A DNA stretch of 19,414 bases from a virus (Duplodnaviria > Heunggongvirae > Uroviricota > Caudoviricetes): the IMG/VR virus record IMGVR_UViG_2529292911_000011; one strand, 5' to 3'. Shown piece by piece: positions 1 through 19,414 of this stretch. Every line of letters starts with the position of its first letter. Position 1 is the first letter of the stretch. The notes under the pieces were generated by a model, which searched no databases, was not told where the DNA came from, and saw only the letters and a list, made by a program, of their open reading frames with translations. The translations under genes were made by a program, and so were the position numbers.

Positions 1-1260
1 ATGCCAAAACTCACAGATATGCAGATCCGCGCATGGATAAAGGCGGGAGACAGATTTGATGGCAAGGCAGACGGCAACGGCCTTTATATTTGCTACCCAA
101 AAAACTACACAGTCCCGTTCTGGCGATTCCGCTATAAGCTCGCAGGAAAGCAGCGGGCTATGGTTATAGGCTCTTACTCCGAACTGTCACTATCAAAAGC
201 CAGAGAAACAGCAAAAGAGCTGTCAGCCAGAGTTGCTCTTGGCTATGACGTAGCAGCAGAGAAACAGGAACGAAAAGCTGAAGCACTGGCAAAAATGGAG
301 GCTGAGAAAAACGCCATGCGCGTTTCAGATCTGGCCGCCGAATACTTCGAGCGCCAGATACTTCCAAGATGGAAACATCCCGATATCCTTCGCCGGAGAA
401 TTGATAAGGATATTAACCCCTGCATTGGGCATATGAAGGTGGAGGACGTTAAGCCACGCCACATTGACGACATGTTGAAAGGTATCGTTGACCGAGGAGC
501 ACCAACGATAGCAACAGATGTATTACGCTGGACACGCCGTATCTTTGACTATGGGATAAAACGCCACGCTCTGGAGATAAACCCTTGTTCAGCGTTTGAA
601 GTATCTGATGCTGGTGGTAAAGAGGTTTCCCGCGACCGTTGGCTAACTCGCGATGAGCTTATCAGGCTATTCGAGGCTATGCGCACCGCAAAAGGATTCA
701 GCCGCCAGAACGAACTGACATTTAAGCTATTGCTGGCACTATGCGTTCGTAAGATGGAGTTATGCGCCGCACGATGGGAAGAGTTTGATTTAGATGGTGC
801 GGTATGGCATTTGCCGGAAGAACGCAGCAAAAACGGAGACCCTATTGATATACCTCTACCTTCCCCAGCCGTTGAATGGTTGAGAGAGCTACACACCTTT
901 TCATGTAATAGCGCATGGGTGCTTCCAGCCAGGAAGATGCAAAACAGAATGATCCCACATATTCAGGAAAGCACTTTGCCCGTAGCACTGGCTAAGGTTC
1001 GCGCCGAAATACCGGATGTGCCTAATTTCACGATTCACGACTTCCGACGCACCGCACGTACTCATTTAGCAGCGTTGGGTGTTGATCCTGTCGTGGCGGA
1101 ACGATGCCTCAATCATCGCATTAAGGGCGTAGAGGGGATTTATAACCGCCATCAGTATTTTGATGAGCGTAAAGCAGCACTGGCACAGTGGGCTGATCTG
1201 CTGGTGGCACTGGAAAGCGGAAAAGACCACAACGTAACGCCTCTCAGAAGGGCGAACTAA
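1..1260 (+). CDS. P4-type tyrosine recombinase (integrase)
   Basis: 419-aa ORF starting at window position 1. N-terminal arm 'LTDMQIRAWIK...GNGLYICYPK...WRFRYK' matches the pattern I recall for P4/CP4-57-family integrases; C-terminal 'HDFRRTARTH' (H-x-x-R) and tyrosine region 'GIYNRHQY'. Minus-strand ORFs at 164-896 are antisense shadows. Confidence 0.9.
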   Translation: MPKLTDMQIRAWIKAGDRFDGKADGNGLYICYPKNYTVPFWRFRYKLAGKQRAMVIGSYSELSLSKARETAKELSARVALGYDVAAEKQERKAEALAKMEAEKNAMRVSDLAAEYFERQILPRWKHPDILRRRIDKDINPCIGHMKVEDVKPRHIDDMLKGIVDRGAPTIATDVLRWTRRIFDYGIKRHALEINPCSAFEVSDAGGKEVSRDRWLTRDELIRLFEAMRTAKGFSRQNELTFKLLLALCVRKMELCAARWEEFDLDGAVWHLPEERSKNGDPIDIPLPSPAVEWLRELHTFSCNSAWVLPARKMQNRMIPHIQESTLPVALAKVRAEIPDVPNFTIHDFRRTARTHLAALGVDPVVAERCLNHRIKGVEGIYNRHQYFDERKAALAQWADLLVALESGKDHNVTPLRRAN

Positions 1261-1355
1261 CTGAATAGATTGAGCCTAGCTCGACGGGGCGAAAAGCGGG
1301 AAGCCTTACCGCCTGGCTCAATCACAAAATAAGGCGCAGCGTAAAAGGTGACGCA

Positions 1356-1887
1356 ATGAAAAAACTACCACCAAATCTCTTTTTCCGACTTAATAGAGCA
1401 GCAAATTTATTAGAAATAGAAGTCGATGATCTTCTACTTATGGGAGTATCAGGCTCTATATTTTTGAGCACAATAATTCACCAGTATGAAGGCGTACTCT
1501 ATCAAGCGGGAAACTTGCCACCAGACCACGGCAGCAAAGACATAGAAAACTTATTATTTGGTTCTATTATTTCTACTAGAGAAGATACCGAAAGATATCT
1601 AAATGAAGGTGTTTTCGATGGTATGAAGTGCTTAGCAAGTGGATTATGGCACGTTCCTAGTGATTTCATTGCTTCCCTTGCAGGGGTTAAGAGAGCCCCT
1701 GACATTCCACTCATATTCTCACCAGCATATATAAAAAAAGAACTAGATATCACATCAGGACGTTACTTTTTCTACGATTTTCGCGAACATGATACCACCG
1801 TATCGTCTGTGGAAGATTTGTATATATCAAGACCGTGGGTTGAATATATAGCTGAAAGCATGGATAAAAATCAGCCAATACCCAGCA
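1356..1887 (+). pseudogene. 5' fragment (177 codons) of an AT-rich gene of unknown function, interrupted by IS10
   Basis: ATG at 1356 with upstream 'aaaaggtga'. The reading frame runs into the IS10 inside end at 1888 and terminates at 1922 within IS-derived sequence. Removing the IS and one copy of the target duplication joins it in frame to 3226-3539, giving a 281-codon ORF. Markedly AT-rich by eye relative to the integrase. Confidence 0.7.
1879..1887. repeat. 9-bp target site duplication (TACCCAGCA), left copy
   Basis: Identical 9-mer directly abuts both IS10 termini (1879-1887 and 3217-3225); 9 bp is the duplication length IS10 makes. Confidence 0.9.
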
Positions 1888-3216
1888 CTGAGAGATCCCC
1901 TCATAATTTCCCCAAAGCGTAACCATGTGTGAATAAATTTTGAGCTAGTAGGGTTGCAGCCACGAGTAAGTCTTCCCTTGTTATTGTGTAGCCAGAATGC
2001 CGCAAAACTTCCATGCCTAAGCGAACTGTTGAGAGTACGTTTCGATTTCTGACTGTGTTAGCCTGGAAGTGCTTGTCCCAACCTTGTTTCTGAGCATGAA
2101 CGCCCGCAAGCCAACATGTTAGTTGAAGCATCAGGGCGATTAGCAGCATGATATCAAAACGCTCTGAGCTGCTCGTTCGGCTATGGCGTAGGCCTAGTCC
2201 GTAGGCAGGACTTTTCAAGTCTCGGAAGGTTTCTTCAATCTGCATTCGCTTCGAATAGATATTAACAAGTTGTTTGGGTGTTCGAATTTCAACAGGTAAG
2301 TTAGTTGCTAGAACCCATGGCTCCTTTGCCGACGCTGAGTAGATTTTAGGTGACGGGTGGTGACAATGAGTCCGTGTCGAGCGCTGATTTTTTCGGCCTT
2401 TAGAGCGAGATTTATACAATAGAATTTGGCATGAGATTGGATTGCTTTTAGTCAGCCTCTTATAGCCTAAAGTCTTTGAGTGACTAGATGACATATCATG
2501 TAAGTTGCTGATAGGTTTCCAGTTTTCCGCTCCTAGGTCTGCATATTGTACTTTTCCTCTTACTCGACTTAACCAGTACCAACCCAGCTTCTCAACGGAT
2601 TTATACCATGGCACTTTAAAGCCAGCATCACTGACAATGAGCGGTGTGGTGTTACTCGGTAGAATGCTCGCAAGGTCGGCTAGAAATTGGTCATGAGCTT
2701 TCTTTGAACATTGCTCTGAAAGCGGGAACGCTTTCTCATAAAGAGTAACAGAACGACCGTGTAGTGCGACTGAAGCTCGCAATACCATAAGTCGTTTTTG
2801 CTCACGAATATCAGACCAGTCAACAAGTACAATGGGCATCGTATTGCCCGAACAGATAAAGCTAGCATGCCAACGGTATACAGCGAGTCGCTCTTTGTGG
2901 AGGTGACGATTACCTAACAATCGGTCGATTCGTTTGATGTTATGTTTTGTTCTCGCTTTGGTTGGCAGGTTACGGCCAAGTTCGGTAAGAGTGAGAGTTT
3001 TACAGTCAAGTAATGCGTGGCAAGCCAACGTTAAGCTGTTGAGTCGTTTTAAGTGTAATTCGGGGCAGAATTGGTAAAGAGAGTCGTGTAAAATATCGAG
3101 TTCGCACATCTTGTTGTCTGATTATTGATTTTTCGCGAAACCATTTGATCATATGACAAGATGTGTATCCACCTTAACTTAATGATTTTTACCAAAATCA
3201 TTAGGGGATTCATCAG
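1888..3216 (-). mobile_element. IS10 insertion sequence, complete copy (1329 bp)
   Basis: Inside end 'CTGAGAGATCCCCTCATAATTTCCCC' at 1888; outside end (reverse complement of 'CTGATGAATCCCCTAATGATTTTGGTAAAAATCATTAAG') ending at 3216; full-length transposase between them; flanked by a 9-bp direct repeat. Length is exactly 1329 bp. Single copy, no tet genes, so not a composite Tn10. Confidence 0.95.
1901..3109 (-). CDS. IS10 transposase
   Basis: 402-aa ORF 'MCELDILHDSLYQFCPELHLKRLNSLTLACHALL...' that I recognise as the IS10/Tn10 (IS4-family) transposase; lies entirely inside the IS10 ends. Confidence 0.95.
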   Translation of the reverse strand: MCELDILHDSLYQFCPELHLKRLNSLTLACHALLDCKTLTLTELGRNLPTKARTKHNIKRIDRLLGNRHLHKERLAVYRWHASFICSGNTMPIVLVDWSDIREQKRLMVLRASVALHGRSVTLYEKAFPLSEQCSKKAHDQFLADLASILPSNTTPLIVSDAGFKVPWYKSVEKLGWYWLSRVRGKVQYADLGAENWKPISNLHDMSSSHSKTLGYKRLTKSNPISCQILLYKSRSKGRKNQRSTRTHCHHPSPKIYSASAKEPWVLATNLPVEIRTPKQLVNIYSKRMQIEETFRDLKSPAYGLGLRHSRTSSSERFDIMLLIALMLQLTCWLAGVHAQKQGWDKHFQANTVRNRNVLSTVRLGMEVLRHSGYTITREDLLVAATLLAQNLFTHGYALGKL

Positions 3217-3225
3217 TACCCAGCA
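3217..3225. repeat. 9-bp target site duplication (TACCCAGCA), right copy
   Basis: Exact copy of 1879-1887, immediately after the IS10 outside end. Confidence 0.9.
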
Positions 3226-3651: not shown

Positions 3652-3855
3652 ATGAACACCGACACGATTCCTACAAAAGGCTATATCAGACGCTTTCGCC
3701 TGGCTGAATTGCTGGGCGTTAGTGTATCCACCATCGACCGTAAAGTAAGAAACGGTTCACTACCACGTCCGGTAAAGCTGGGAGAAAAAATAACTGCGTT
3801 TGATGCGGTTGAGATTCACAACTGGCTGGCAGAACGCCGCGGGAAGGTGGCCTGA
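3652..3855 (+). CDS. alpA: AlpA-family transcriptional regulator (phage-type HTH)
   Basis: 67 aa; 'RLAELLGVSVSTIDRKVRNGSLPRPVKLGEKITAFDAVEIHNWL' matches the AlpA helix-turn-helix pattern; SD 'AAGAGG' upstream; positioned downstream of the integrase as in P4-type islands. Confidence 0.85.
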   Translation: MNTDTIPTKGYIRRFRLAELLGVSVSTIDRKVRNGSLPRPVKLGEKITAFDAVEIHNWLAERRGKVA

Positions 3856-5307: not shown

Positions 5308-6329
5308 CCGTCCAGAAGAAGACATTTTCACTGGCAGGTATGTCGCCAAAATCCAGCAATATGACGGCAAAGTCAGGCATTAATACAGCAGATGCAAGCA
5401 AAGTTTATCATTTGCTGGTGGTCGGAACGGATGCCTTAACCATACCAGAAATCTCGGGCGATGATATTAGCATTGAGAAGGTCAGCGGCTGCGCCAGAAA
5501 ATTTCTGGTCGTAGATGATGTCTTCCGCTCGTGTAGTGACTCCACAAAAACATTCGTCCACGTGCGTGACGTTAACGAAATGAGCGCGATGTACTGTGCA
5601 TCTGGTGCTTCCAATACTGAGTTTTCGGAGTCCATAAAAAAGAGCTTGCCGTTATGCGGCAACACGGTTTATGGTTATAAGGCACCTCATAAAACGGGTG
5701 CCGGGATTGGCCTCCCGCTGACAATCGAGGCGATACATGACGCGCCAGCGTCTTTTTTTGTATCGGCGCACACGCACACCTTATCAATGGTGGGCTGTAT
5801 GGGGCTACCTTCGGGTAGGCTGGTTTCCTTGATTGCCAGTAAGGCCAACTCCGTACAGTCCACCGCCAGCAAGATTGGTCTCTTGGGCGGTGGCTATAAA
5901 CCATCAATCAAGGAGGCTGCCACATGCTGGCTACTACCCCTACCCCAAAACCGCAATTTATCTGGATTATCGCCGCAGTTCGCCGCGATTGCCCGACAAT
6001 TACCGCCAAAATTCATCATATTGCTGCCGAGTCTGAACGCGATGCTCGCCGTTCTCTGGTGCGCGATCACGTCTGCTTTTTTGCTGGTCGTATCCGCATG
6101 GAGGTGGCACATGATTAAAACCTACGATGTGCATATGGATCCCCTCGAACGCACAAGCCAGATCATCACACTGACAGAAGTGATTAACGACATTCTGGTG
6201 AGCAACTCTCCCTCACGAGACGAAAGACTGAAGGCGTTACTCGCGATATTGGATCTCGCCGTTCGTGACGTTCATTTCCTGCTGGAAGGTGGACAAATGC
6301 CATGCAAAACGGGGGCAACCAATGAATAA
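5301..6329 (+). CDS. Stop-free 342-codon frame of uncertain coding status; its 3' 73 codons (from ATG 6111) are the best-supported part
   Basis: ATG at 5301 overlaps the upstream stop (ATGCTAA). The frame is open for 1029 nt. An in-frame ATG at 6111 has a strong SD 'GGAGGTGG' (6101-6108). An out-of-frame ORF with its own strong SD (5924-6118) sits inside it, so the 5301-6110 part may be non-coding or an overlapping gene. Confidence 0.3.
5924..6118 (+). CDS. Small protein (64 aa), possibly Icd-like host cell division inhibitor
   Basis: Consensus SD 'AGGAGG' (5911-5916) 7 nt before ATG 5924; stop overlaps ATG 6111 (ATGATTAA). '[27 protein letters not shown]' resembles prophage proteins annotated Icd-like, from memory only. 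Confidence 0.45.
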   Translation: MLATTPTPKPQFIWIIAAVRRDCPTITAKIHHIAAESERDARRSLVRDHVCFFAGRIRMEVAHD

Positions 6330-7601: not shown

Positions 7602-10358
7602 ATGCGAAACATTGATCTTATCCGTCAGGTTATCAGTGCGTCTGAAAACAACTGGCCTCATGTGCTGGGCTGCCTGAACATAAATGTCCCTGACTCTCCG
7701 CGCCGTCATGCTCCCTGCCCTGCATGTGGGGGCAAAGATCGATTCCGGTTCGATGACAACGGGCGCGGTAGCTTCATCTGTAATCAGTGCGGCGCTGGTG
7801 ATGGGCTGGATTTAATTAAACGCGTAAATAACTGCGACACAACAGAGGCGGCGCTTCTTGCCGCTGATGTTCTGGGTATTGATTACCGGACAACGGAAAC
7901 ACCAGAAGCCACCAGCCAGAAACGGGAACAACTGGAAACCGAGCGCCAGCGACGCGAACAGGAGCGCCTGAAAAGGGCAGAGAAGGACGAACAACAAAGA
8001 CGGGATACGTTTTCCCGTCAGTTTGATGACATGCGCAGAAAGGCTGTAAACGGCAAATCTGATTATCTGGTTGCGAAAGGGGTAGGTGATTTTACATTCC
8101 CCGTGTTGCCCGATGGATCTCTGTTGCTGGCGCTGGTGGATAAATCCGGCGCAGTCACAGCAGCACAGACTATTACCTCACATGGTGAAAAAAGACTCCT
8201 GACAGGTTCAGCAAAGCGAGGGGCATATCACGCCATAAACGCACCAGAAACAACACAGAGCATCTTAATCGCAGAAGGGCTGGCAACGGCATTATCTGCC
8301 CATTTAATTCGTCCAGAGGCGCTGACAGTGGCGGCGATTGATGCCGGGAACCTGTTATATGTCGCCCAGGTACTGCGGGATAAATTTCCTTCAGCACAAA
8401 TCATCATTGCTGCGGATAACGACCACAGCGAAGGAAGACAAAACACGGGGAGAATAGCAGCAGAAAAAGCAGCTTTATCTGTTTCTGGATGGGTGGCATT
8501 ACCCCCGACAGATCACAAAGCAGACTGGAATGATTACCACCAAAAACACGGCATTAAATGCGCCACAGAAGCGTTCAATAAGTCAATGTACCAACCACAG
8601 GGTAATGGCGTGAAACAGGAGCCACAGACCATTGAGGGAAGCGATTTTAAGGTTATGGATACCGACCCACTGAAACCAAGAATAGAAAGCCGCGAGGATG
8701 GTATTTATTGGGTATCTCCGAGAGCTGACAGCCAGAGTGGAGAAATCATCAATAACGAAAGCTGGTTATGTTCTCCGTTAAGCGTTATCGGTACTGGCAG
8801 AGACGATAAAGACCAGTATCTCATTCTTCGCTGGCTGTCGTTTGGTTCTGAAACGCCGACAACCGCTGCCATTCCACTGGCTGATATTGGTGAACGTGAA
8901 GGATGGCGCACACTTAAAGCTGGTGGGGTAAATGTCACGACCAAAAGCAGCCTCAGAGCAATACTGGCAGACTGGCTACAACGCAGTGGCTCTCGTGAAT
9001 TGTGGCGTGTTGCTCATGCCACTGGCTGGCAATGCGGAGCGTACATCATGCCTGATGGGGAAATCATCGGAACACCTGAAAATCCTGTGCTGTTCAGCGG
9101 GAGAAGCTCAGCCGCAGCCGGATATACCGTCTCAGGGAGCGCGAAAAGCTGGCGTGATAACGTGGCGCGTCTGGCCTTTGGTAACTATTCAATGATGACC
9201 GGGATCGGCGCAGCACTGGCAGCGCCATTGATTGGGCTGGTGGGCGCTGACGGGTTCGGCATTCATTTCTATGAGCAGTCGAGCGCGGGTAAGACCACCA
9301 CGGCAAACGTGGCGAGCAGCTTATACGGCAACCCTGATTTACTGCGGCTGACGTGGTACGGAACCGCGCTGGGGCTGGCAAATGAGGCCGCCGCCCACAA
9401 TGACGGATTAATGCCGCTTGATGAAGTTGGTCAGGGCGCTGATCCTGTCAGCGTTTCACAGTCTGCCTATGCGTTATTTAACGGTGTAGGGAAACTGCAA
9501 GGCGCTAAAGATGGTGGAAACCGTGATCTAAAACGCTGGCGTACAGTGGCAATCAGCACCGGAGAAATGGATTTAGAAACATTTATCGCTACTTCTGGGC
9601 GAAAAACCAAAGCCGGGCAACTGGTGCGACTGCTGAATATTCCGTTGAGTAAAGCAGTACGCTTTCACGATTACCAGAACGGAAAACAGCACGCAGACGC
9701 ACTGAAAGACGCTTACCAGCATCACCACGGCGCAGCCGGGCGTGAGTGGATTAAATGGCTGGCAGACCACCAGCAACAGGCTATTAAAACTGTTCGTGAT
9801 TGCGAAAGCAGATGGAGAAGCCTGATCCCATCCGATTATGGTGAGCAGGTTCACCGTGTAGCCGCGCGATTTGCCATTCTGGAGGCAGCATTGCTGTTAG
9901 GCGAAGTTGTAACAGGCTGGGATGCTCAGACATGCCGTGATGCGATACAGCACAGCTATAACGCATGGTTGCGCGAGTTCGGCACAGGTAACAAAGAACA
10001 TCAGCAGATTATTGAACAAACGGAGGCATTTCTTAATGCCTATGGGCTTAGCCGTTTTGCACCATTTCCATACAGCCCGGCAGATTTGCCCATCAAAGAT
10101 TTAGCCGGATACCGTCAGCGTGGAGAACATGACGAAAGCCCAATGATTTTCTACACATTCCCGGCCACATTTGAAAAGGAGATCGCATGTGGTTTCAACG
10201 CAAAACAGTTTGCTGAAGTGTTGAAAAAAGCCGGGATGCTAACCCCACCAAACAGCGGTCGTGGATACCAAAGAAAATCACCACGTATTCAGGGACGACA
10301 AATAAACGTTTATGTACTCAATTACCAGCCAGGAGATTATAACTCATCTGAAGAATGA
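7602..10358 (+). CDS. DNA primase-helicase (N-terminal zinc ribbon + TOPRIM + C-terminal P-loop ATPase), P4 alpha / PICI Pri-Rep type
   Basis: 918 aa. Cys cluster 'CPACGG...CNQCG' near the N-terminus; TOPRIM-like 'LIAEGLATALS' and 'IIAADNDHSEG'; Walker A-like 'YEQSSAGKTT'. Iteron cluster lies immediately downstream. Confidence 0.9.
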   Translation: MRNIDLIRQVISASENNWPHVLGCLNINVPDSPRRHAPCPACGGKDRFRFDDNGRGSFICNQCGAGDGLDLIKRVNNCDTTEAALLAADVLGIDYRTTETPEATSQKREQLETERQRREQERLKRAEKDEQQRRDTFSRQFDDMRRKAVNGKSDYLVAKGVGDFTFPVLPDGSLLLALVDKSGAVTAAQTITSHGEKRLLTGSAKRGAYHAINAPETTQSILIAEGLATALSAHLIRPEALTVAAIDAGNLLYVAQVLRDKFPSAQIIIAADNDHSEGRQNTGRIAAEKAALSVSGWVALPPTDHKADWNDYHQKHGIKCATEAFNKSMYQPQGNGVKQEPQTIEGSDFKVMDTDPLKPRIESREDGIYWVSPRADSQSGEIINNESWLCSPLSVIGTGRDDKDQYLILRWLSFGSETPTTAAIPLADIGEREGWRTLKAGGVNVTTKSSLRAILADWLQRSGSRELWRVAHATGWQCGAYIMPDGEIIGTPENPVLFSGRSSAAAGYTVSGSAKSWRDNVARLAFGNYSMMTGIGAALAAPLIGLVGADGFGIHFYEQSSAGKTTTANVASSLYGNPDLLRLTWYGTALGLANEAAAHNDGLMPLDEVGQGADPVSVSQSAYALFNGVGKLQGAKDGGNRDLKRWRTVAISTGEMDLETFIATSGRKTKAGQLVRLLNIPLSKAVRFHDYQNGKQHADALKDAYQHHHGAAGREWIKWLADHQQQAIKTVRDCESRWRSLIPSDYGEQVHRVAARFAILEAALLLGEVVTGWDAQTCRDAIQHSYNAWLREFGTGNKEHQQIIEQTEAFLNAYGLSRFAPFPYSPADLPIKDLAGYRQRGEHDESPMIFYTFPATFEKEIACGFNAKQFAEVLKKAGMLTPPNSGRGYQRKSPRIQGRQINVYVLNYQPGDYNSSEE

Positions 10359-10942: not shown

Positions 10943-11116
10943 ATGGCTATTTCAGTAAAGCCGGTATTGATAAGTGAGAAGCAAATGGAAGCGATAAAGA
11001 AAATTCAGGAGGAGCAGCGTAAAAAATCAGAGGTAGGAGTTGCGCCAACGATCCACGAAATTGCTCGGGGATTAATGGATAAGGCGCTGGCTTACACTTT
11101 AACTGGACGTGGGTAA
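10943..11116 (+). CDS. Small protein (57 aa), possible ribbon-helix-helix DNA-binding protein
   Basis: Not in the ORF track (under 60 aa). ATG 10943 with SD 'AAGGGGG' (10932-10938). 'KPVLISEKQMEAIKKIQEE...GVAPTIHEIARGLMDKAL' has a strand-helix-loop-helix layout compatible with an Arc/CopG-like fold. Ends 4 nt before the next ATG. Confidence 0.45.
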   Translation: MAISVKPVLISEKQMEAIKKIQEEQRKKSEVGVAPTIHEIARGLMDKALAYTLTGRG

Positions 11117-11120
11117 ATCA

Positions 11121-12587
11121 ATGGCTACGTGGCAACAGGGTATTAATTCTGGTGGTTTTCTGGCTGGCATCGGTACGCAAAATGAGAATGCGCCAAAGGC
11201 AAGCGACATTAACGCAACGCTTGGTCTGATTCGCGAAAACAATGAACTGGCTCGATCAGGTGCAAATAACGTTGCTCTGACAGGTCTTCGTGGTCTGGCT
11301 GGAGTTGCTGATATTTATAAGCAGCAGCAACAGCAGGAGCGTAAAGCGGCATTCCAGAAAGGTTATGCAGATGCTTATGCGTCCGGTGACAGGGAGCAGA
11401 TGCGTAATCTTATTACAGCATTCCCAGAAGAGTTTGAGGAAGTCCGTAAAGGGATGAGTTATGTCGATGATGCTCAAAGGGATGATTATGGCAATCTGGC
11501 GCTCAAAGCACAGGTAGCCTCATCGCTTGGTCCGGGCGCATTTGGCAGGTTCATGATGGATAATGAGCAGGAGATGCGTCGTTTAGGTATCCCTCCAGAA
11601 ACTATTGCTGAAATGCAGGTTAATGACCCGCAGGGCTTCCAGCATTTCGCAGGTAATCTGGCGCTGTTTTCTCTCGGTCATGAGAAGTATTTCGATATCA
11701 AAGATCAAATGGAAAGTCGGGATATTGAGCGTGGCAAGTTGGCAGAGACAATCCGCAGCAATCAGGCTGGTGAAGCACTTCAGGCGAGAGGGCAGGATAT
11801 TAGCCGAGCAAATGCGTTAACGTCAGCATATGCACCAACAGCAGCAATGCAGAATTACAATCAGTACGCGCAAATGTTAAAGGCTGATCCAGAGGGGGCG
11901 GCGGCATTTGCGGCAGCGGCTGGAATTAATACAAACACCAAAAAATTAATGAGTGTTAGAGAAAACGATGATGGCACTGTCACAAAATACTACACAGACG
12001 GAAGTGAAGAGCAGGGAAAACTAAACCAGCCAATATCTGGAGATGGGTTTCGTCCAATAGCTTTGCCAACAGCCCAAAAGATCATGGAAAAGTCGCCAGA
12101 AGGGGCTAAAAAAGCTGCTGGATTTGCATACAGGGTTAGGGATGCTCTTGATTCAATAGATACACTGAAAGACCAGCTTAGCCCACAGCGAGTGGCGATC
12201 ATTAATAATGCTTTGGGTAATGGGACGCTGGCTAACTTAACGCTCAGCCCAGCAGAGCAGCAATACGTTGTTAATGCTAATGACGCAATAATGGCAATAC
12301 TCCGTCAGGAAACAGGGGCAGCTATCGCACCTGCTGAAATGTCAAAATATTATCAAATGTATTTCCCTCAGCCTGGCGACTCCACAAAAACCATTGATAC
12401 CAAGCGCCGGAAGATGGAAAACCAGTTCAATTCGCTGAAAGCTGCTTCTGGTCGAACTTATGATGCTTTGCGGGTTATTTCAGCAGTTGACAGAGGAACT
12501 GCTTCTTCGTCGCAGACATTGCCGCAATCTGAGCAGGTATCACAGCCAGCAGCCAGCAGTAACTTTTCTTCACTATGGGGTGATTAA
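11121..12587 (+). CDS. Hypothetical protein (488 aa), Gln/Ala-rich, function unknown
   Basis: ATG 11121 (the track's GTG at 11109 is an alternative start). Poly-Q stretch 'KQQQQQERK', Ala-rich tracts; no catalytic motif recognised. Stop overlaps the start of the next gene (TAATG). Confidence 0.8.
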   Translation: MATWQQGINSGGFLAGIGTQNENAPKASDINATLGLIRENNELARSGANNVALTGLRGLAGVADIYKQQQQQERKAAFQKGYADAYASGDREQMRNLITAFPEEFEEVRKGMSYVDDAQRDDYGNLALKAQVASSLGPGAFGRFMMDNEQEMRRLGIPPETIAEMQVNDPQGFQHFAGNLALFSLGHEKYFDIKDQMESRDIERGKLAETIRSNQAGEALQARGQDISRANALTSAYAPTAAMQNYNQYAQMLKADPEGAAAFAAAAGINTNTKKLMSVRENDDGTVTKYYTDGSEEQGKLNQPISGDGFRPIALPTAQKIMEKSPEGAKKAAGFAYRVRDALDSIDTLKDQLSPQRVAIINNALGNGTLANLTLSPAEQQYVVNANDAIMAILRQETGAAIAPAEMSKYYQMYFPQPGDSTKTIDTKRRKMENQFNSLKAASGRTYDALRVISAVDRGTASSSQTLPQSEQVSQPAASSNFSSLWGD

Positions 12588-14692
12588 TGGCTAAAGCATG
12601 GAAAGATGTTATCGCCTCTCCACAGTATCAGGCGTTAGCACCAGAACAAAAAGCGCAGGCTCAGGAGCAATACTTCAATGAAGTCGTTGCCCCGCAAGCC
12701 GGAGAAAGTGTAGAGCAGGCTAAGCAGGCTTTTTATGCTGCCTATCCACTACCATCAACGAATGAAATAGACCGATCCCAATCAGCAACTCAAAATATTC
12801 AACATACATCATCTGATAATTCTATTGCGTCAGGGTATGCAAAGTTAGCTACTCAGCAAAGAGAGGGGCTTGAGCGTTCAGCAGAACAGGGAGCCAGTCT
12901 TGGGGCTGCGATGCGCGATGCTATAACAGGCGAAAGCCGAATGACTCCAGAGATGGAGAGACTGCAAAATGTCGACCTTGCCCCAGAGTTAACCTCACTC
13001 AGCATGGATGCTCTAAAAGCTCGATGGTCTCAACTTTTCGGCTCTGACGCATCTCAGGAAAAGATTCTTCAGAGCATGGGAGCGAAATTAAGGCAGGATG
13101 AGAAGGGTAACACTATCGTTTCCCTGCCATCCGGTGATTATGCTCTGAACAAGCCGGGTTTATCGCCGCAAGACGTGGCATCGTTTCTGGCTAATGCGCT
13201 GGCGTTTACACCAGCGGGCAGGGCCGGAACGGTGCTGGGGGCCATAGGGAAATCAGCAGCTACAGATTTAGCACTACAGGGAGCCACCAGCCTCGCTGGT
13301 GGAGAAGATATTGATCCGTTACAAACGGTAATTTCTGCTGGCATTGGTGGTATTGGTAAGGGGCTGGAAAATACAGCGAGTGCGGTTTCGAGGGCTGTTC
13401 GTGGTGATATGTCGCCTGAAGCAAAGGCTGCTGTCGACTTTGCATCGGAAAGAAATCTGCCGTTAATGACCAGTGACATGCTGAAAGATAAAACCTTTAT
13501 GCAGAGTCAGGCTCAGACATTAGGCGAAAGAGTTCCTTTTTTTGGAACCGGTAAGAATCGGCTGAATCAACAACAAGCACGAGAAAATTTAGTCAGAACA
13601 TTTAGCGATGGTCTGGGTGGCATTTCTGATAAACAGCTTTATGAATCTGCGACTAAAGGGCAACAAAAATTCATTGAGGCAGCAGGAAAGCGATATAACC
13701 GCATAATTGACGCTATGGGGGATACCCCTGTCGATCTCTCAAACACGGTAAAAGCTATCGACAATCAGATTGCCGTGTTAAGCCGCCCGGGCAAATCTCA
13801 GGATAGAGCCGCGGTAAAAGTCTTGCAGCAATTTAAAGACGATATCACCAGCGGACCAAATGACCTGCGTCTGGCGAGGGAAAACAGAACCGATCTTCGA
13901 AAGCGATTTATGGCGTCATCTGACACTGTTGATAAAGATACGCTCCAGAAAGCCAGCGATATTATCTACAAGGCATATACGGCGGATATGAAAAAAGCCG
14001 TAGCCAAAAATCTTGGAGCAGACGAAGCTATTAATATGGCAAGGGTTGATCGCTCATGGTCTAAATTCAATGACATGATGGGAAGAACGCGCGTTCAAAA
14101 GGCAATAGCCAGCGGCAAGGCCACGCCTGAGGATGTAACAAAACTTGTTTTTAGCCAAAGCCCATCAGAACGTTCTCAGCTTTACAGGCTTCTGGATGAC
14201 AATGGTAGGCAAAACGCACGAGCAGCCATAGTTCAGAATGCTGTAGATAAGGCGACTGATCCGTCTGGAAATATCAGTGTTGAGAAGTTTATTAATGCGT
14301 TACACCGGAACAGGAAGCAATCAGCAACTTTCTTTAAAGGCATACATGGAAAGGAACTGGACGGCGTTATTAAATACCTCAACGATACAAGACACGCGGC
14401 AAAAGCGAACGTTCAAAACTTAAATGGTCAGCAGCTTTATGGATTGTTAGTTGGTGGTGGCATCATAAACGCAGCAGTATTAGCGGGGATGCTAAAAACG
14501 GCTGCGTTTGTTGTTCCTGCTGCTGGTGCCGTAGGCGGAGCAGCGAAGGCATACGAAAGCCCTGTTATACGAAATGCCTTGTTACGTCTGGCAAATACGC
14601 CAAAAGGTAGCACAGCATATGACAGAGCGATCAGTACGGTCACACAATCACTGACCACAGCAGCACAAGCATCGCAAAAGGAAGCTCAATAA
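12587..14692 (+). CDS. Hypothetical protein (701 aa), helical low-complexity with a C-terminal Gly/Ala-rich hydrophobic segment, function unknown
   Basis: Translationally coupled to the upstream gene. Residues ~617-656 'LYGLLVGGGIINAAVLAGMLKTAAFVVPAAGAVGGAAKAY' (nt ~14435-14554) look like a glycine-zipper/transmembrane segment. No nucleotide-binding or nuclease motif recognised. Confidence 0.85.
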   Translation: MAKAWKDVIASPQYQALAPEQKAQAQEQYFNEVVAPQAGESVEQAKQAFYAAYPLPSTNEIDRSQSATQNIQHTSSDNSIASGYAKLATQQREGLERSAEQGASLGAAMRDAITGESRMTPEMERLQNVDLAPELTSLSMDALKARWSQLFGSDASQEKILQSMGAKLRQDEKGNTIVSLPSGDYALNKPGLSPQDVASFLANALAFTPAGRAGTVLGAIGKSAATDLALQGATSLAGGEDIDPLQTVISAGIGGIGKGLENTASAVSRAVRGDMSPEAKAAVDFASERNLPLMTSDMLKDKTFMQSQAQTLGERVPFFGTGKNRLNQQQARENLVRTFSDGLGGISDKQLYESATKGQQKFIEAAGKRYNRIIDAMGDTPVDLSNTVKAIDNQIAVLSRPGKSQDRAAVKVLQQFKDDITSGPNDLRLARENRTDLRKRFMASSDTVDKDTLQKASDIIYKAYTADMKKAVAKNLGADEAINMARVDRSWSKFNDMMGRTRVQKAIASGKATPEDVTKLVFSQSPSERSQLYRLLDDNGRQNARAAIVQNAVDKATDPSGNISVEKFINALHRNRKQSATFFKGIHGKELDGVIKYLNDTRHAAKANVQNLNGQQLYGLLVGGGIINAAVLAGMLKTAAFVVPAAGAVGGAAKAYESPVIRNALLRLANTPKGSTAYDRAISTVTQSLTTAAQASQKEAQ

Positions 14693-17503: not shown

Positions 17504-18268
17504 ATGACTACAACGGTATATGATCGTGTTAACGCCTTAGTAGCGACCGACTCTAGGTGGTCTGTTGATCTTAGCCCACATGGCTACGATGGTCATATCC
17601 TGTATATTGACGATACCGGCTTCGGTAAGCTAGCTCCACGAAATGATTTTGTTATGCTTTTAGCCGGTGATGGTCTTTTGATTCAGTTATGGAAGCATTG
17701 GTGGCGAGGAGACCTATCTCAACAAGAACCACCAGTTGTTTTACCTACTGGTCAATCGGTAAATTTACATATTGTGAAAAAATCAACTAATGAAGTGATT
17801 TTTGATAAAGGTCAAAAATTAGTTGTAAAAAATAACGAAACGGAAGAACTGTTCGCTGTCTTTACAGGCTCAGGATGCGGTGCTGCTGCGCAAAACTGGA
17901 TGTATAGCCATTGCGCAAGATCAGCAATTGAAGAATCTAAAAAGCTTGACCCATACACTGGCGGCACTGTACGTTTTTTAGACTTCAGGACTAACGCATC
18001 ATTAGTAGAAGACTCTGTTTCAACCATTAGCGAAGTAAACGAAGCTCTATTGCAGAGGGGGCTGATTATGGATACCAAAAACCCACATTCACCACACGTT
18101 TCTATCAGTGCACAAGAAGTTGCTGAAGTTCGTCAAATGCTGGTTAGTGGTTCAATTACCCCATGTGCACCAGTAGGCCAAAGAACCCAAGATTGGGATG
18201 ACAACTCCAAATTGCGTTTAGCAAATGCTATTCAGCGTATTCGTGAAGAAGAAGCACAAATGCGATAA
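17504..18268 (+). CDS. Hypothetical protein (254 aa), AT-rich, function unknown
   Basis: Long ORF in a relatively AT-rich segment, followed by a strong hairpin terminator. No motif recognised. Confidence 0.75.
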   Translation: MTTTVYDRVNALVATDSRWSVDLSPHGYDGHILYIDDTGFGKLAPRNDFVMLLAGDGLLIQLWKHWWRGDLSQQEPPVVLPTGQSVNLHIVKKSTNEVIFDKGQKLVVKNNETEELFAVFTGSGCGAAAQNWMYSHCARSAIEESKKLDPYTGGTVRFLDFRTNASLVEDSVSTISEVNEALLQRGLIMDTKNPHSPHVSISAQEVAEVRQMLVSGSITPCAPVGQRTQDWDDNSKLRLANAIQRIREEEAQMR

Positions 18269-18286
18269 ATGGAATAAGTAAGCCTA

Positions 18287-18316
18287 AAAAGCTGCCTATC
18301 ATACAGGCAGCTTTTT
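18287..18316. terminator. Rho-independent terminator, potentially bidirectional
   Basis: 'AAAAGCTGCCT-ATCATAC-AGGCAGCTTTTT': 7-bp GC-rich stem flanked by an A-run on the 5' side and a T-run on the 3' side; 19 nt after the stop of the 254-aa ORF. Confidence 0.75.
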
Positions 18317-18627
18317 AGTCCGTTTCCCCATTCTATGTAAATACACTTCCTAAAAATAGCGATTAACTTACCTCTCACAATCAATTTCACGAGCAATACG
18401 CGTGCGCAGTACAACAAGCCTGAACAGGGTTACACACCTCGATCGTGAGCGATGTAGACAATGGCTTTTGACCAAAGCACCAGAAAAAACCGTGTACATA
18501 AGGGTGTACATAATCAAAAAAATCATTAGAAAGAAATCAGCCACAATGCGGCATTGAAGCCAATACTCTACAAACAGATTCAATTGAGTAACTCGTAACA
18601 CTAATTCTTACTTTTCAGCCTTCACAA

Positions 18628-18658
18628 ATGCCGCCCACTCAAACAGAGCGGCATTTTT
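18628..18658 (+). terminator. Orphan rho-independent terminator-like hairpin
   Basis: Stem 'ATGCCGC' (18628-18634) / 'GCGGCAT' (18648-18654), 13-nt loop, T-run 18654-18658. No plus-strand ORF within about 300 bp upstream. Confidence 0.5.
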
Positions 18659-18748
18659 CTTCCCCGCAACTTCAATTCTGTTTTGCGTGCCTGCTCCAGA
18701 TTTTGCGATGTTTTTTTGCCCAGCACACTGAGAACGTGAGATACTCAC

Positions 18749-18768
18749 AACTGTATATAAATACAGTT
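18749..18768 (+). promoter_or_regulatory. LexA box (SOS operator)
   Basis: 'AACTGTATATAAATACAGTT' is a perfect CTGT-N8-ACAG palindrome with AT-rich centre, about 45 bp upstream of the start of the downstream ORF. It matches the dinD SOS box as I remember it. Confidence 0.8.
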
Positions 18769-18811
18769 ACAGATTTACTTTCTTTGCAATCGATATCACA
18801 TGGAGTGGGCA

Positions 18812-19414
18812 ATGAACGAACATCATCAACCTTTTGAAGAGATAAAACTGATTAATGCAAACGGAGCAGAACAATGGTCAGCAAGACAACTTGGGAAACT
18901 ACTGGGTTATTCAGAGTATCGTCACTTTATACCTGTATTAACGCGCGCCAAAGAGGCCTGTGAGAACAGTGGTCACACAATTGATGACCATTTCGAGGAG
19001 ATCCTCGATATGGTCAAAATTGGCTCAAATGCCAAAAGAGCATTAAAAGACATCGTACTCTCCCGCTATGCCTGTTACCTGGTAGTACAAAACGGCGACC
19101 CCGCGAAACCGGTCATTGCGGCAGGGCAGACTTATTTTGCTATCCAGACCCGACGGCAGGAGCTTGCTGACGATGAAGCATTTAAGCAACTTCGTGAAGA
19201 CGAAAAGCGTCTGTTTCTGAGAAATGAGTTGAAAGAACATAACAAACAATTGGTTGAGGCAGCACAGCAAGCTAATACCACACACTTTGACGTGGGTAGC
19301 AAGGTGAGGCAAACCATTCAGGAACTTGGCGGAACCATGCCTGAGGAGTTGCCGACCCCGCAGGTCAGCATCAAGCAGTTGGAAAACAGTGTAAAAATTA
19401 CAGAGAAGAAATAG
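18812..19414 (+). CDS. dinD: DNA-damage-inducible protein, DinD-like
   Basis: ORF ending at a TAG at the window edge. Preferred start is ATG 18812 (GGAG at 18802-18805); the track start is 18800. Identity rests on the LexA box and my recollection of dinD, not on an alignment. My memory is that DinD is longer (~274 aa), so this may be a shorter variant or my memory may be wrong. Confidence 0.6.
   Translation: MNEHHQPFEEIKLINANGAEQWSARQLGKLLGYSEYRHFIPVLTRAKEACENSGHTIDDHFEEILDMVKIGSNAKRALKDIVLSRYACYLVVQNGDPAKPVIAAGQTYFAIQTRRQELADDEAFKQLREDEKRLFLRNELKEHNKQLVEAAQQANTTHFDVGSKVRQTIQELGGTMPEELPTPQVSIKQLENSVKITEKK

Follow-up and report, generated by a model that had tools for sequence, protein, structure and literature searches.

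The right attachment site of a very probable yicC-integrated PICI in Escherichia coli and the deletion allele of dinD beside it

Tyrosine-integrase attachment sites of the lambda/P4 type can lie at the 3' end of a gene. There, the attP of the element copies the 3' end of the target gene so that the gene stays intact, the core is flanked by arm-type repeats, and the integrase has an arm-binding domain. The site of e14, in icd, is an example of an attachment site in a gene 3' end. The organization of the PICIs of Gram-negative bacteria has been described, with the element of Escherichia coli strain 042 as a representative (Fillol-Salom et al. 2018; PMC6092414). PICIs at yicC, and the PICI of E. 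coli 042 (EcCIO42, also EcCI042), are likewise known (PMC6092414; preprint 10.1101/2022.07.18.500453). The 3' end of yicC is also the target of Vibrio MGIs, which differ in that they are mobilizable islands of another kind (PMC5704250). For the yicC PICIs, a preprint from the Williams lab noted 'attB drift', that is, identity blocks that do not overlap, without explaining it. The idea that prophages are grounded by way of resected att sites is also known (PMC6379469).

We found that the right end (positions 18287-19414) of a 19,414-nt stretch of DNA, here called the window, is very probably the attR of an EcCI 042-type PICI that has inserted in the final codons of yicC. With this reading, an orphan terminator in this region is that of yicC, and the next gene is chromosomal dinD with an internal deletion. 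The explanation is ordinary biology that published work on PICIs and on dinD already covers. For annotation, the gain is a border fixed to the base, a target that is yicC and not a tRNA gene, an explanation for a stray terminator, and a dinD flagged as a deletion allele.

We compared 18287-19414 by megablast to 5426 complete E. coli genomes, 4736 of which matched. In island-free genomes the match began at query position 297, which is window position 18583, and the features beneath it were yicC and dinD. From 18583 to 19414 (the 3' end of yicC to dinD), the window is 100% identical to the island-free strain 700462, and in a base-by-base walk backward the identity to the island-free genome stopped at 18582. 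That is, the junction between island and chromosome is at 18582/18583. An initial annotation of the window had put the probable end of the island between 18316 and 18750 and had proposed alignment to an island-free chromosome; the alignment to 700462 placed the junction within that interval. The segment of the right arm from 18440 to 18582 was present in 210 of the 5426 genomes. None of the 5426 contained an exact copy of the window including its IS10.

The chromosomal context is that of yicC and dinD. In the island-bearing relatives that we examined, including ETEC1731, fS58a, and 042, the gene order is rph, yicC, the integrase and the rest of the island, dinD, yicG, ligB, gmk, rpoZ, and spoT. 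Given the synteny of rph, yicC, the island, dinD, and yicG, there is therefore no island DNA beyond dinD. In island-free genomes yicC and dinD are 220 bp apart, and the island sits between them. The nearest relative is ETEC1731 (100.0% identity in the aligned part, which is 93% of the window). Because the window's own attL is outside the window, it is from these relatives that we infer integration into yicC. The initial annotation had sought a tRNA-like attachment site. The target would instead be the 3' end of a protein gene: ARAGORN found no tRNA or tmRNA gene in the whole window, and the junction is inside yicC, so the element does not belong to the class that targets tRNA or tmRNA genes.

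The island is approximately 17.4 kb plus an IS10 insertion of 1.3 kb, and it is 97% identical in DNA sequence to the element of strain 042 across 83% of the window. It has the gene set of a PICI. This comprises int, the int-alpA RNA, AlpA, an AntA-family protein, an Ash-family protein, a primase with Zn-ribbon, Toprim, and DUF927 domains, and PerC (Table 1). The island also encodes isrK and C4 antisense RNAs along with a P22-type injectosome protein and one other large protein. As expected of a PICI, int, alpA, and pri-rep are all on the + strand in one rightward unit, and there is a specific attachment site with attL and attR repeats, a 21-bp core in the 3' end of yicC. The island is like the EcCI elements (EcCIO42/EcCI042) in its rightward order of int, alpA, a Bro/Ant zone, pri, a late zone, and PerC, in its size (within 10-20 kb), and in its dedicated attachment site in yicC. 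It differs from EcCIO42/EcCI042 in that the copy in the window has IS10 in the ORF beside int and lacks 4 nt of the attR core through a deletion. In contrast to most reference PICIs, its late zone has genes for P22-type ejection proteins and not a capsid gene. The only sign of excision or replication is an indirect one: a sibling element has been assembled as a 12-kb circle.

Table 1. Coordinates in the window of features of the island, its right border, and the adjacent chromosome.
Feature	Position	Strand	Remarks
Tyrosine integrase, 419 aa, with N-terminal arm-DNA-binding domain	1-1260	+	Left island end; Pfam Arm-DNA-bind_3, Phage_int_M, Phage_integrase
int-alpA RNA	1269-1335	+	Rfam, 60.6 bits
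AlpA	3652-3855	+	
Zn-ribbon/Toprim/DUF927 primase	7602-10358	+	
Terminator of the last island gene	18284-18318		Hairpin with perfect 14-bp stem, A-run and T-run flanks; last island gene is 17504-18268
Right arm of the island (P arm of attP)	18319-18574		Non-coding in RefSeq annotation of relatives
Two arm-type direct repeats, GTGTACATAA	18492-18513	+	18492-18501 and 18504-18513, in a 12-nt register, at distances of 83 and 71 nt to the left of the core
Remnant of the attR core, CAGATTCA^ATTGAGTAA	18575-18591	+	17 of 21 core nt; from comparison with attB, attL, and attP
Predicted original intrinsic terminator of yicC, cut off from yicC by the island	18626-18661	+	9-bp stem, 13-nt loop, T-run
LexA (SOS) box of dinD, AACTGTATATAAATACAGTT	18749-18768	+	Same sequence as the box of dinD in K-12
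dinD, short allele, 200 aa	18812-19414	+	Ribosome-binding site GGAG at 18802-18805
Deletion junction in dinD, one copy of ACAGCAAGC left	19264-19272	+	K-12 has two copies, 222 bp apart

The att core is a 21-bp sequence, CAGATTCAGAATATCGAATAA, that is also the last 21 nt of yicC (encoding Q-I-Q-N-I-E and the stop codon). In island-free genomes, attB reads GAG-CAGATTCAGAATATTGAGTAA-CTCG, in which TAA is the yicC stop codon. The attL of four relatives reads GAG-CAGATTCAGAATATCGAATAA-GCTATC, and the attR of the window (18566-18595) reads CTACAAA-CAGATTCA-ATTGAGTAA-CTCG. That is, GAAT is missing from this attR between 18582 and 18583, and the original stop codon of yicC, now displaced, is at 18589-18591. 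The attL junction was found in 257 of the 5426 genomes and was full-length in 255 of those 257; in one relative (L001) the end of yicC with the core is at 1531-1551 and int starts at 1740. The core of the window's own attL, which the initial annotation had correctly placed outside the window, would be approximately 189-209 nt upstream of its first base, judging from the relatives. That annotation had reported no direct repeat because the attL partner is this far to the left and the attR copy is eroded.

We recovered attP four times. Three were in metagenome contigs in which the right arm is joined to the left arm, and the fourth was in NZ_CP148430.1, a circular replicon of 12,152 bp that is the sibling element present as a separate replicon in one complete genome. 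A scan of viral contigs found no attP junction. The four attP read ...CTACAAA-CAGAT(T/C)CAGAATATCGAATAA-GCTATCAG... (in a longer form, CTCTACAAA-CAGAT(T/C)CAGAATATCGAATAA-GCTATCAGTAAAAATC), and all of them have the full 21-bp core. An attP that naturally lacks the GA dinucleotide (core AATAT...) had fitted the first five attR and was refuted by these four.

The repeats in the right arm were kept in position in all 26 copies sampled, with both repeats exact in 24, and the left arm of relatives has the arm motif four times (two direct and two inverted). By analogy with the lambda/P4 paradigm, the GTGTACATAA repeats are putative sites for binding of the integrase through its arm-binding domain. 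The site is thus like those of the lambda/P4 type in its arm-type repeats, in its integrase, and in an attP that copies the end of the target gene. It differs in that the block of identity is just 21 bp and in that the island also brings a replacement terminator. We propose that the tyrosine integrase of the island recombined the 21-bp core of attP with the last 21 nt of yicC, to which this core is identical. At attL, which is seen only in the relatives, yicC would get its last codons and a stop codon from the island, along with a new hairpin terminator. The residue at attR would be the P arm with its two arm-type repeats, a copy of the core, and then unchanged chromosome, in the order old yicC stop codon, old yicC terminator, dinD promoter region with the LexA box, and dinD. 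If so, the island is a clear case of an integrative element providing its target gene with a new end and a new terminator together.

The orphan hairpin fits this arrangement. The initial annotation had placed it at 18628-18658, which is essentially right. Its stem is perfect (18626-18634 paired with 18648-18656) with 5 G-C pairs and is followed by TTTTTCTT, and its fold z-score is a modest -2.2. A simple terminator scan made no call at 18626-18661; the scan has a loop limit of 8 nt, versus the 13-nt loop here. In two island-free genomes (L002 and L003) the hairpin begins 35 nt past the yicC stop codon. No other terminator-like structure lies between yicC and dinD, and therefore we take this hairpin to be the original terminator of yicC, stranded by the insertion. 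Its form predicts that transcription would end there. Just past the restored yicC stop codon in the attL of relatives is another hairpin, of canonical form and with a T-run, AAAGCCCG-N10-CGGGCTTTTTT (1582-1617 in L001). The island thus has its own replacement stop and terminator at attL, which leaves the old terminator stranded at attR. There it would at most halt read-through from the island, the last gene of which has a strong terminator of its own. One of two suggestions in the initial annotation, that the hairpin is a remnant of a gene cut by integration, agrees with its place as the yicC terminator in island-free genomes; the other is taken up below.

The gene to the right of the hairpin is chromosomal dinD, as the initial annotation had supposed. 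It is 100% identical to dinD of strain 700462, it is in yicC-dinD-yicG-ligB synteny, and its product matches the DinD equivalog model of NCBIfam (NF008573) with 330.2 bits, above the cutoff of 242. K-12 DinD matches this model in one stretch (488.1 bits). The match of the window protein is in two stretches, the better of which ends at position 159 of 288, and the centre of the profile is unmatched. The initial annotation had also set dinD against a phage Bro-N protein, with an island that continues past the window. The first half of this choice was ill-posed. Pfam Bro-N is found at residues 10-105 of the window's DinD, and K-12 DinD likewise has it, and therefore Bro-N cannot discriminate between the two; synteny and identity settle the matter. 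As to the second half, the island stops before dinD.

The LexA box upstream of dinD is, as had been noted, essentially perfect. It has perfect 8-nt inverted arms and matches the consensus (CTGT-N8-ACAG type) at 17 of 20 positions. Nothing else in the window matched TACTG(TA)5CAGTA with up to 3 mismatches, and 200 shuffles gave 0 matches. The box is 43 nt upstream of the ATG of dinD, and between the core and the start of dinD all 229 bp are the same as in the island-free strain. The SOS gene dinD is a classical one, and its LexA box ranks among the best: in K-12, this box has a heterology index of 2.2, and dinD has 9.8-fold induction by AZT and 12-fold dependence on lexA (PMC11228462). DinD acts on RecA filaments (Uranga et al. 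2011, as cited in PMC4849656). In the window, dinD would be a resident SOS gene repressed by LexA at this box; a promoter scan found no sigma-70 consensus promoter for it. The longest ORF (18800-19414) is 204 aa and reaches the last base of the window. The start in RefSeq annotations of identical sequences is its second ATG, which GGAG precedes by 6 nt, and the product is 200 aa versus 274 aa in K-12. A sequence search of the PDB found no solved relative of DinD.

The impression in the initial annotation that this ORF is shorter than DinD, and its proposal to look for an internal deletion by alignment, were both correct. Relative to dinD (pcsA) of K-12, the copy in the window is missing 222 bp in frame between 9-nt repeats, which removes 74 aa (residues 155-228). 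Outside the deletion the protein is 100% identical to that of K-12 except for R237S (K-12 numbering), and the two genes have an identical LexA box and promoter region and the same position between yicC and yicG. Slippage or recombination between the two repeats would have removed codons 155-228. By a 45-mer across the junction, the short allele is in 343 of the 5426 genomes, among them IAI1 and the island-free strain 700462; approximately 4327 have the long allele (deleted segment present), and 707 have no dinD. The short allele occurs with or without the island, and it is therefore a standing polymorphism unrelated to it. Few parts of DinD are as well conserved as the stretch that was deleted. 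In 77 homologues from many phyla, its mean identity to the K-12 residue is 81% with no gaps, and it contains the motifs TELAANLFRA (100%) and DFAIFQNHGY (96%). All 77 are 262-292 aa long, and the window protein, at 200 aa, does not have the full-length DinD architecture of ~265-290 aa. It is not a separate family but a deletion allele of dinD that automated pipelines call normal dinD. Given the loss of the most conserved part of the family, the short DinD is probably non-functional.

We read attR in 26 integrated copies of the element, including that of the window. Four had the full 21-bp core and 22 had deletions, of 2, 4, 6, 7, 9, 11, or 12 bp, in at least 10 sequence forms. All of the deletions start no more than 2 nt after CAGATYCA, are nested, and run rightward. 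As a control, the 100 nt to the left of the core had no indels, and the 100 nt to the right had two single-nt lineage indels only. All four attP are intact, in contrast to attR (Fisher p = 0.0026). ETEC1731 has the -11 form, versus -4 in the window, despite being the nearest kin, and therefore the changes in attR are recent and recurrent. The loss of the 4 nt GAAT should prevent excision, and the island in the window is therefore probably locked in.

Several other explanations were considered for parts of this region. It is very unlikely that the hairpin is the 3' end of an sRNA, either independent or derived from the 3'UTR of yicC. Such 3'UTR-derived sRNAs are common in E. coli, and the hairpin and its flanks are kept in the four dinD-bearing backgrounds that we aligned, which differ there only by SNPs and by a single 1-nt indel polymorphism in the loop. 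However, neither the hairpin nor the att arm matched any Rfam family, whether the cutoff was the gathering threshold or E<=1 (chance matches below threshold were found only at the island's own terminator), and a promoter scan found no promoter-like site upstream of the hairpin. This suggestion of the initial annotation thus found no support. In addition, 35 nt past the stop codon is the normal place for a terminator in the island-free genomes, and when the island is present the DNA upstream of the hairpin is an att arm. The reading as the yicC terminator is preferred. A broader proposal is that the terminator, LexA box, and dinD form a 1.16-kb cassette, the relic of an older element at the same yicC site, such that the mobile region goes beyond the PICI. 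The flanks of dinD in E. coli speak against it: they have no integrase, arm repeats, or second core, only a 7-nt AATATTG close to the cassette's right edge, and yicG, ligB, and gmk follow directly after dinD. Moreover, yicC is immediately followed by dinD in Pectobacterium, Photorhabdus, Morganella, Yersinia, Rahnella, and Providencia, and in these genera DinD has diverged about as much as YicC, a pattern in keeping with long-standing vertical inheritance and some losses. We therefore regard the cassette as improbable, despite the 707 genomes without dinD in which an unrelated 78-bp sequence begins precisely where the yicC stop codon ends, which is also where the att core has its right edge, the Bro-N domain in DinD, the full-length homologues of DinD (52-61% identity) on Streptococcus satellite phages and small phage contigs, and the homologues of 66-84% identity that are scattered over distant phyla. 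Among 80 homologue loci, a canonical LexA box upstream of dinD was found only in Escherichia and Shigella, with a weaker CTG-N10-CAG in five others, and so the LexA box is not part of a mobile cassette.

Two further alternatives concern the deletions. The 200-aa DinD might be a functional variant under selection. Its deletion is in frame, 343 genomes have it as an intact ORF annotated as dinD, all with the same junction, and it keeps the Bro-N domain and the C-terminal 46 aa. This reading is nevertheless rather unlikely, since residues 155-228 hold invariant motifs, 0 of the 77 homologues are gapped there, and dinD can be dispensed with, to the point that 13% of the genomes lack it. The shortened attR core, in turn, might reflect a variant attP or a different crossover point at integration, in which case the island may still be mobile. 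A variant attP without GA, with a crossover to its right, could explain the -2 form (CAGATTCA-ATAT...), which is in three chromosomal backgrounds, and the 'attB drift' of the Williams-lab preprint is in keeping with it. Against this, the pattern used to search the metagenome contigs for attP would also have admitted any shortened core, yet the four attP recovered were full-length. The attR forms, at least 10 in length or sequence, go down to 9 nt, too short for an overlap region of 6-8 bp, and the nearest relative of the window's island has -11 where the window has -4. We consider a variant attP or a shifted crossover unlikely and prefer erosion of attR, which probably explains the 'attB drift' of the yicC PICIs.

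What causes the erosion is a separate matter. It is possible, if doubtful, that the attR core of the yicC PICIs is a mutational hot spot and that the deletions are scars made by an enzyme. According to this model, the integrase would cleave the top strand at a fixed position in attR and, in an abortive reaction, reseal it onto a recessed 5' end. The deletions would be like those of the topoisomerase-I type, and the satellite would be progressively grounded. The alternative is ordinary selection for copies that do not excise, with attL protected as the code for the C-terminus of YicC. The state of the island is like that of grounded prophages (PMC6379469) in that an otherwise intact element has a damaged attR core and a predicted loss of excision. 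It differs in that here there are nested deletions of 2-12 bp from one point in the core, in most resident copies, and in attR only. In the literature searched we found no description of nested attR deletions, only the concept of grounding and the remark on 'attB drift', and the one-sided nested pattern confined to attR may be new. If the deletions are made by the enzyme, they would provide a simple mechanism, open to testing, for the permanent fixation of satellites in chromosomes. They would also be a caution for border-mapping software that is built on blocks of identity between attL and attR.

A match to the island arm in H30 had the appearance of a second integration locus. It proved to be the same yicC site, in a lineage without dinD.

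We found that the copy of the att core at the right end of the island (attR) was often shortened. Nested deletions of 2-12 bp were present in the attR core of 22 of the 26 yicC PICI copies sampled (window 18575-18591 and relatives at loci L001, L004-L008, L016-L027 and L108-L114), and every deletion started no more than 2 nt after the sequence CAGATYCA. In contrast, attL and attP of the yicC PICIs were intact. To the right of the core, dinD was absent from 707 of the 5426 complete E. coli genomes searched. These genomes had an unrelated 78-bp sequence in place of the 1.16-kb cassette containing the terminator, LexA box and dinD. The replacement began exactly past the right edge of the att core, where the yicC stop codon ends.

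In an island-bearing relative that includes the left junction (L001), a 12-nt stretch directly upstream of int (1717-1728) perfectly repeats the att core in inverted orientation (TATTCGATATTC compared to GAATATCGAATA). This stretch lies ~12-23 nt before the int ATG, a position just left of window base 1, and may be a site for autoregulation by the integrase.

A sibling PICI was present in its assembly as a separate circular "plasmid" of 12,152 bp (L015, the whole of record NZ_CP148430.1), with attP intact. Published work describes PICIs as having no plasmid state. This circle may be the excised, replicating form of the PICI, caught at the time of sequencing.

Features of the window and of two dinD-less junctions
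Feature	Position	Details
int-alpA RNA	window 1269-1335	Rfam, above gathering score
Target duplication, left copy	window 1879-1887	9 bp, TACCCAGCA
IS10	window 1888-3216	complete, 1329 bp
IS10 transposase	window 1901-3109	minus strand
RNA-OUT of IS10	window 3102-3171	98.8 bits
Target duplication, right copy	window 3217-3225	9 bp, TACCCAGCA
isrK Hfq-binding RNA	window 5682-5758	Rfam, above gathering score
C4 antisense RNA	window 5783-5870	Rfam, above gathering score
PICI late zone	window 11109-14692	P22-type DNA-ejection protein genes
Last island gene	window 17504-18268	254 aa
dinD-less junction	L006 20245-20330	
dinD-less junction	L007 4105-4190	

Within the island, IS10 splits a 282-aa ORF adjoining int, an insertion found in none of the complete genomes in the collection. 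The isrK and C4 RNAs constitute a P1/P7-type immunity RNA module and adjoin AntA/Ash genes. The late zone matched Pfam Inj_translocase (281 bits), also encodes a 701-aa protein that other annotations assign to the P22-gp16 family, and contained no capsid gene. These ejection proteins hint that the helper phage is P22-like. The 042 relative has two more genes of the ejection module. The product of the last island gene had no match in Pfam or NCBIfam. The same position contains a Doc-type toxin module in the 042 island and an Abi-family gene in the Ec387 island, and looks like a variable cargo slot beside attR.

DinD was unusually highly conserved: homologues in distant phyla, among them Chlamydiae, Campylobacterota and Geobacter, shared 66-84% identity. 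Full-length homologues were also found in Streptococcus satellite phages. The homologues considered here are those at loci L030, L037, L041, L042, L052, L058 and L083 and the phage hits H160-H180. In six further enterobacterial genera dinD is likewise directly downstream of yicC. Only in Escherichia and Shigella did the search find a canonical LexA box ahead of the homologue. Two records labelled "Campylobacter phage", each of 174 kb (MG065686.1 and MG065691.1; hits H158 and H159), contain a copy 100% identical to E. coli K-12 dinD, most likely E. coli DNA contaminating these assemblies.
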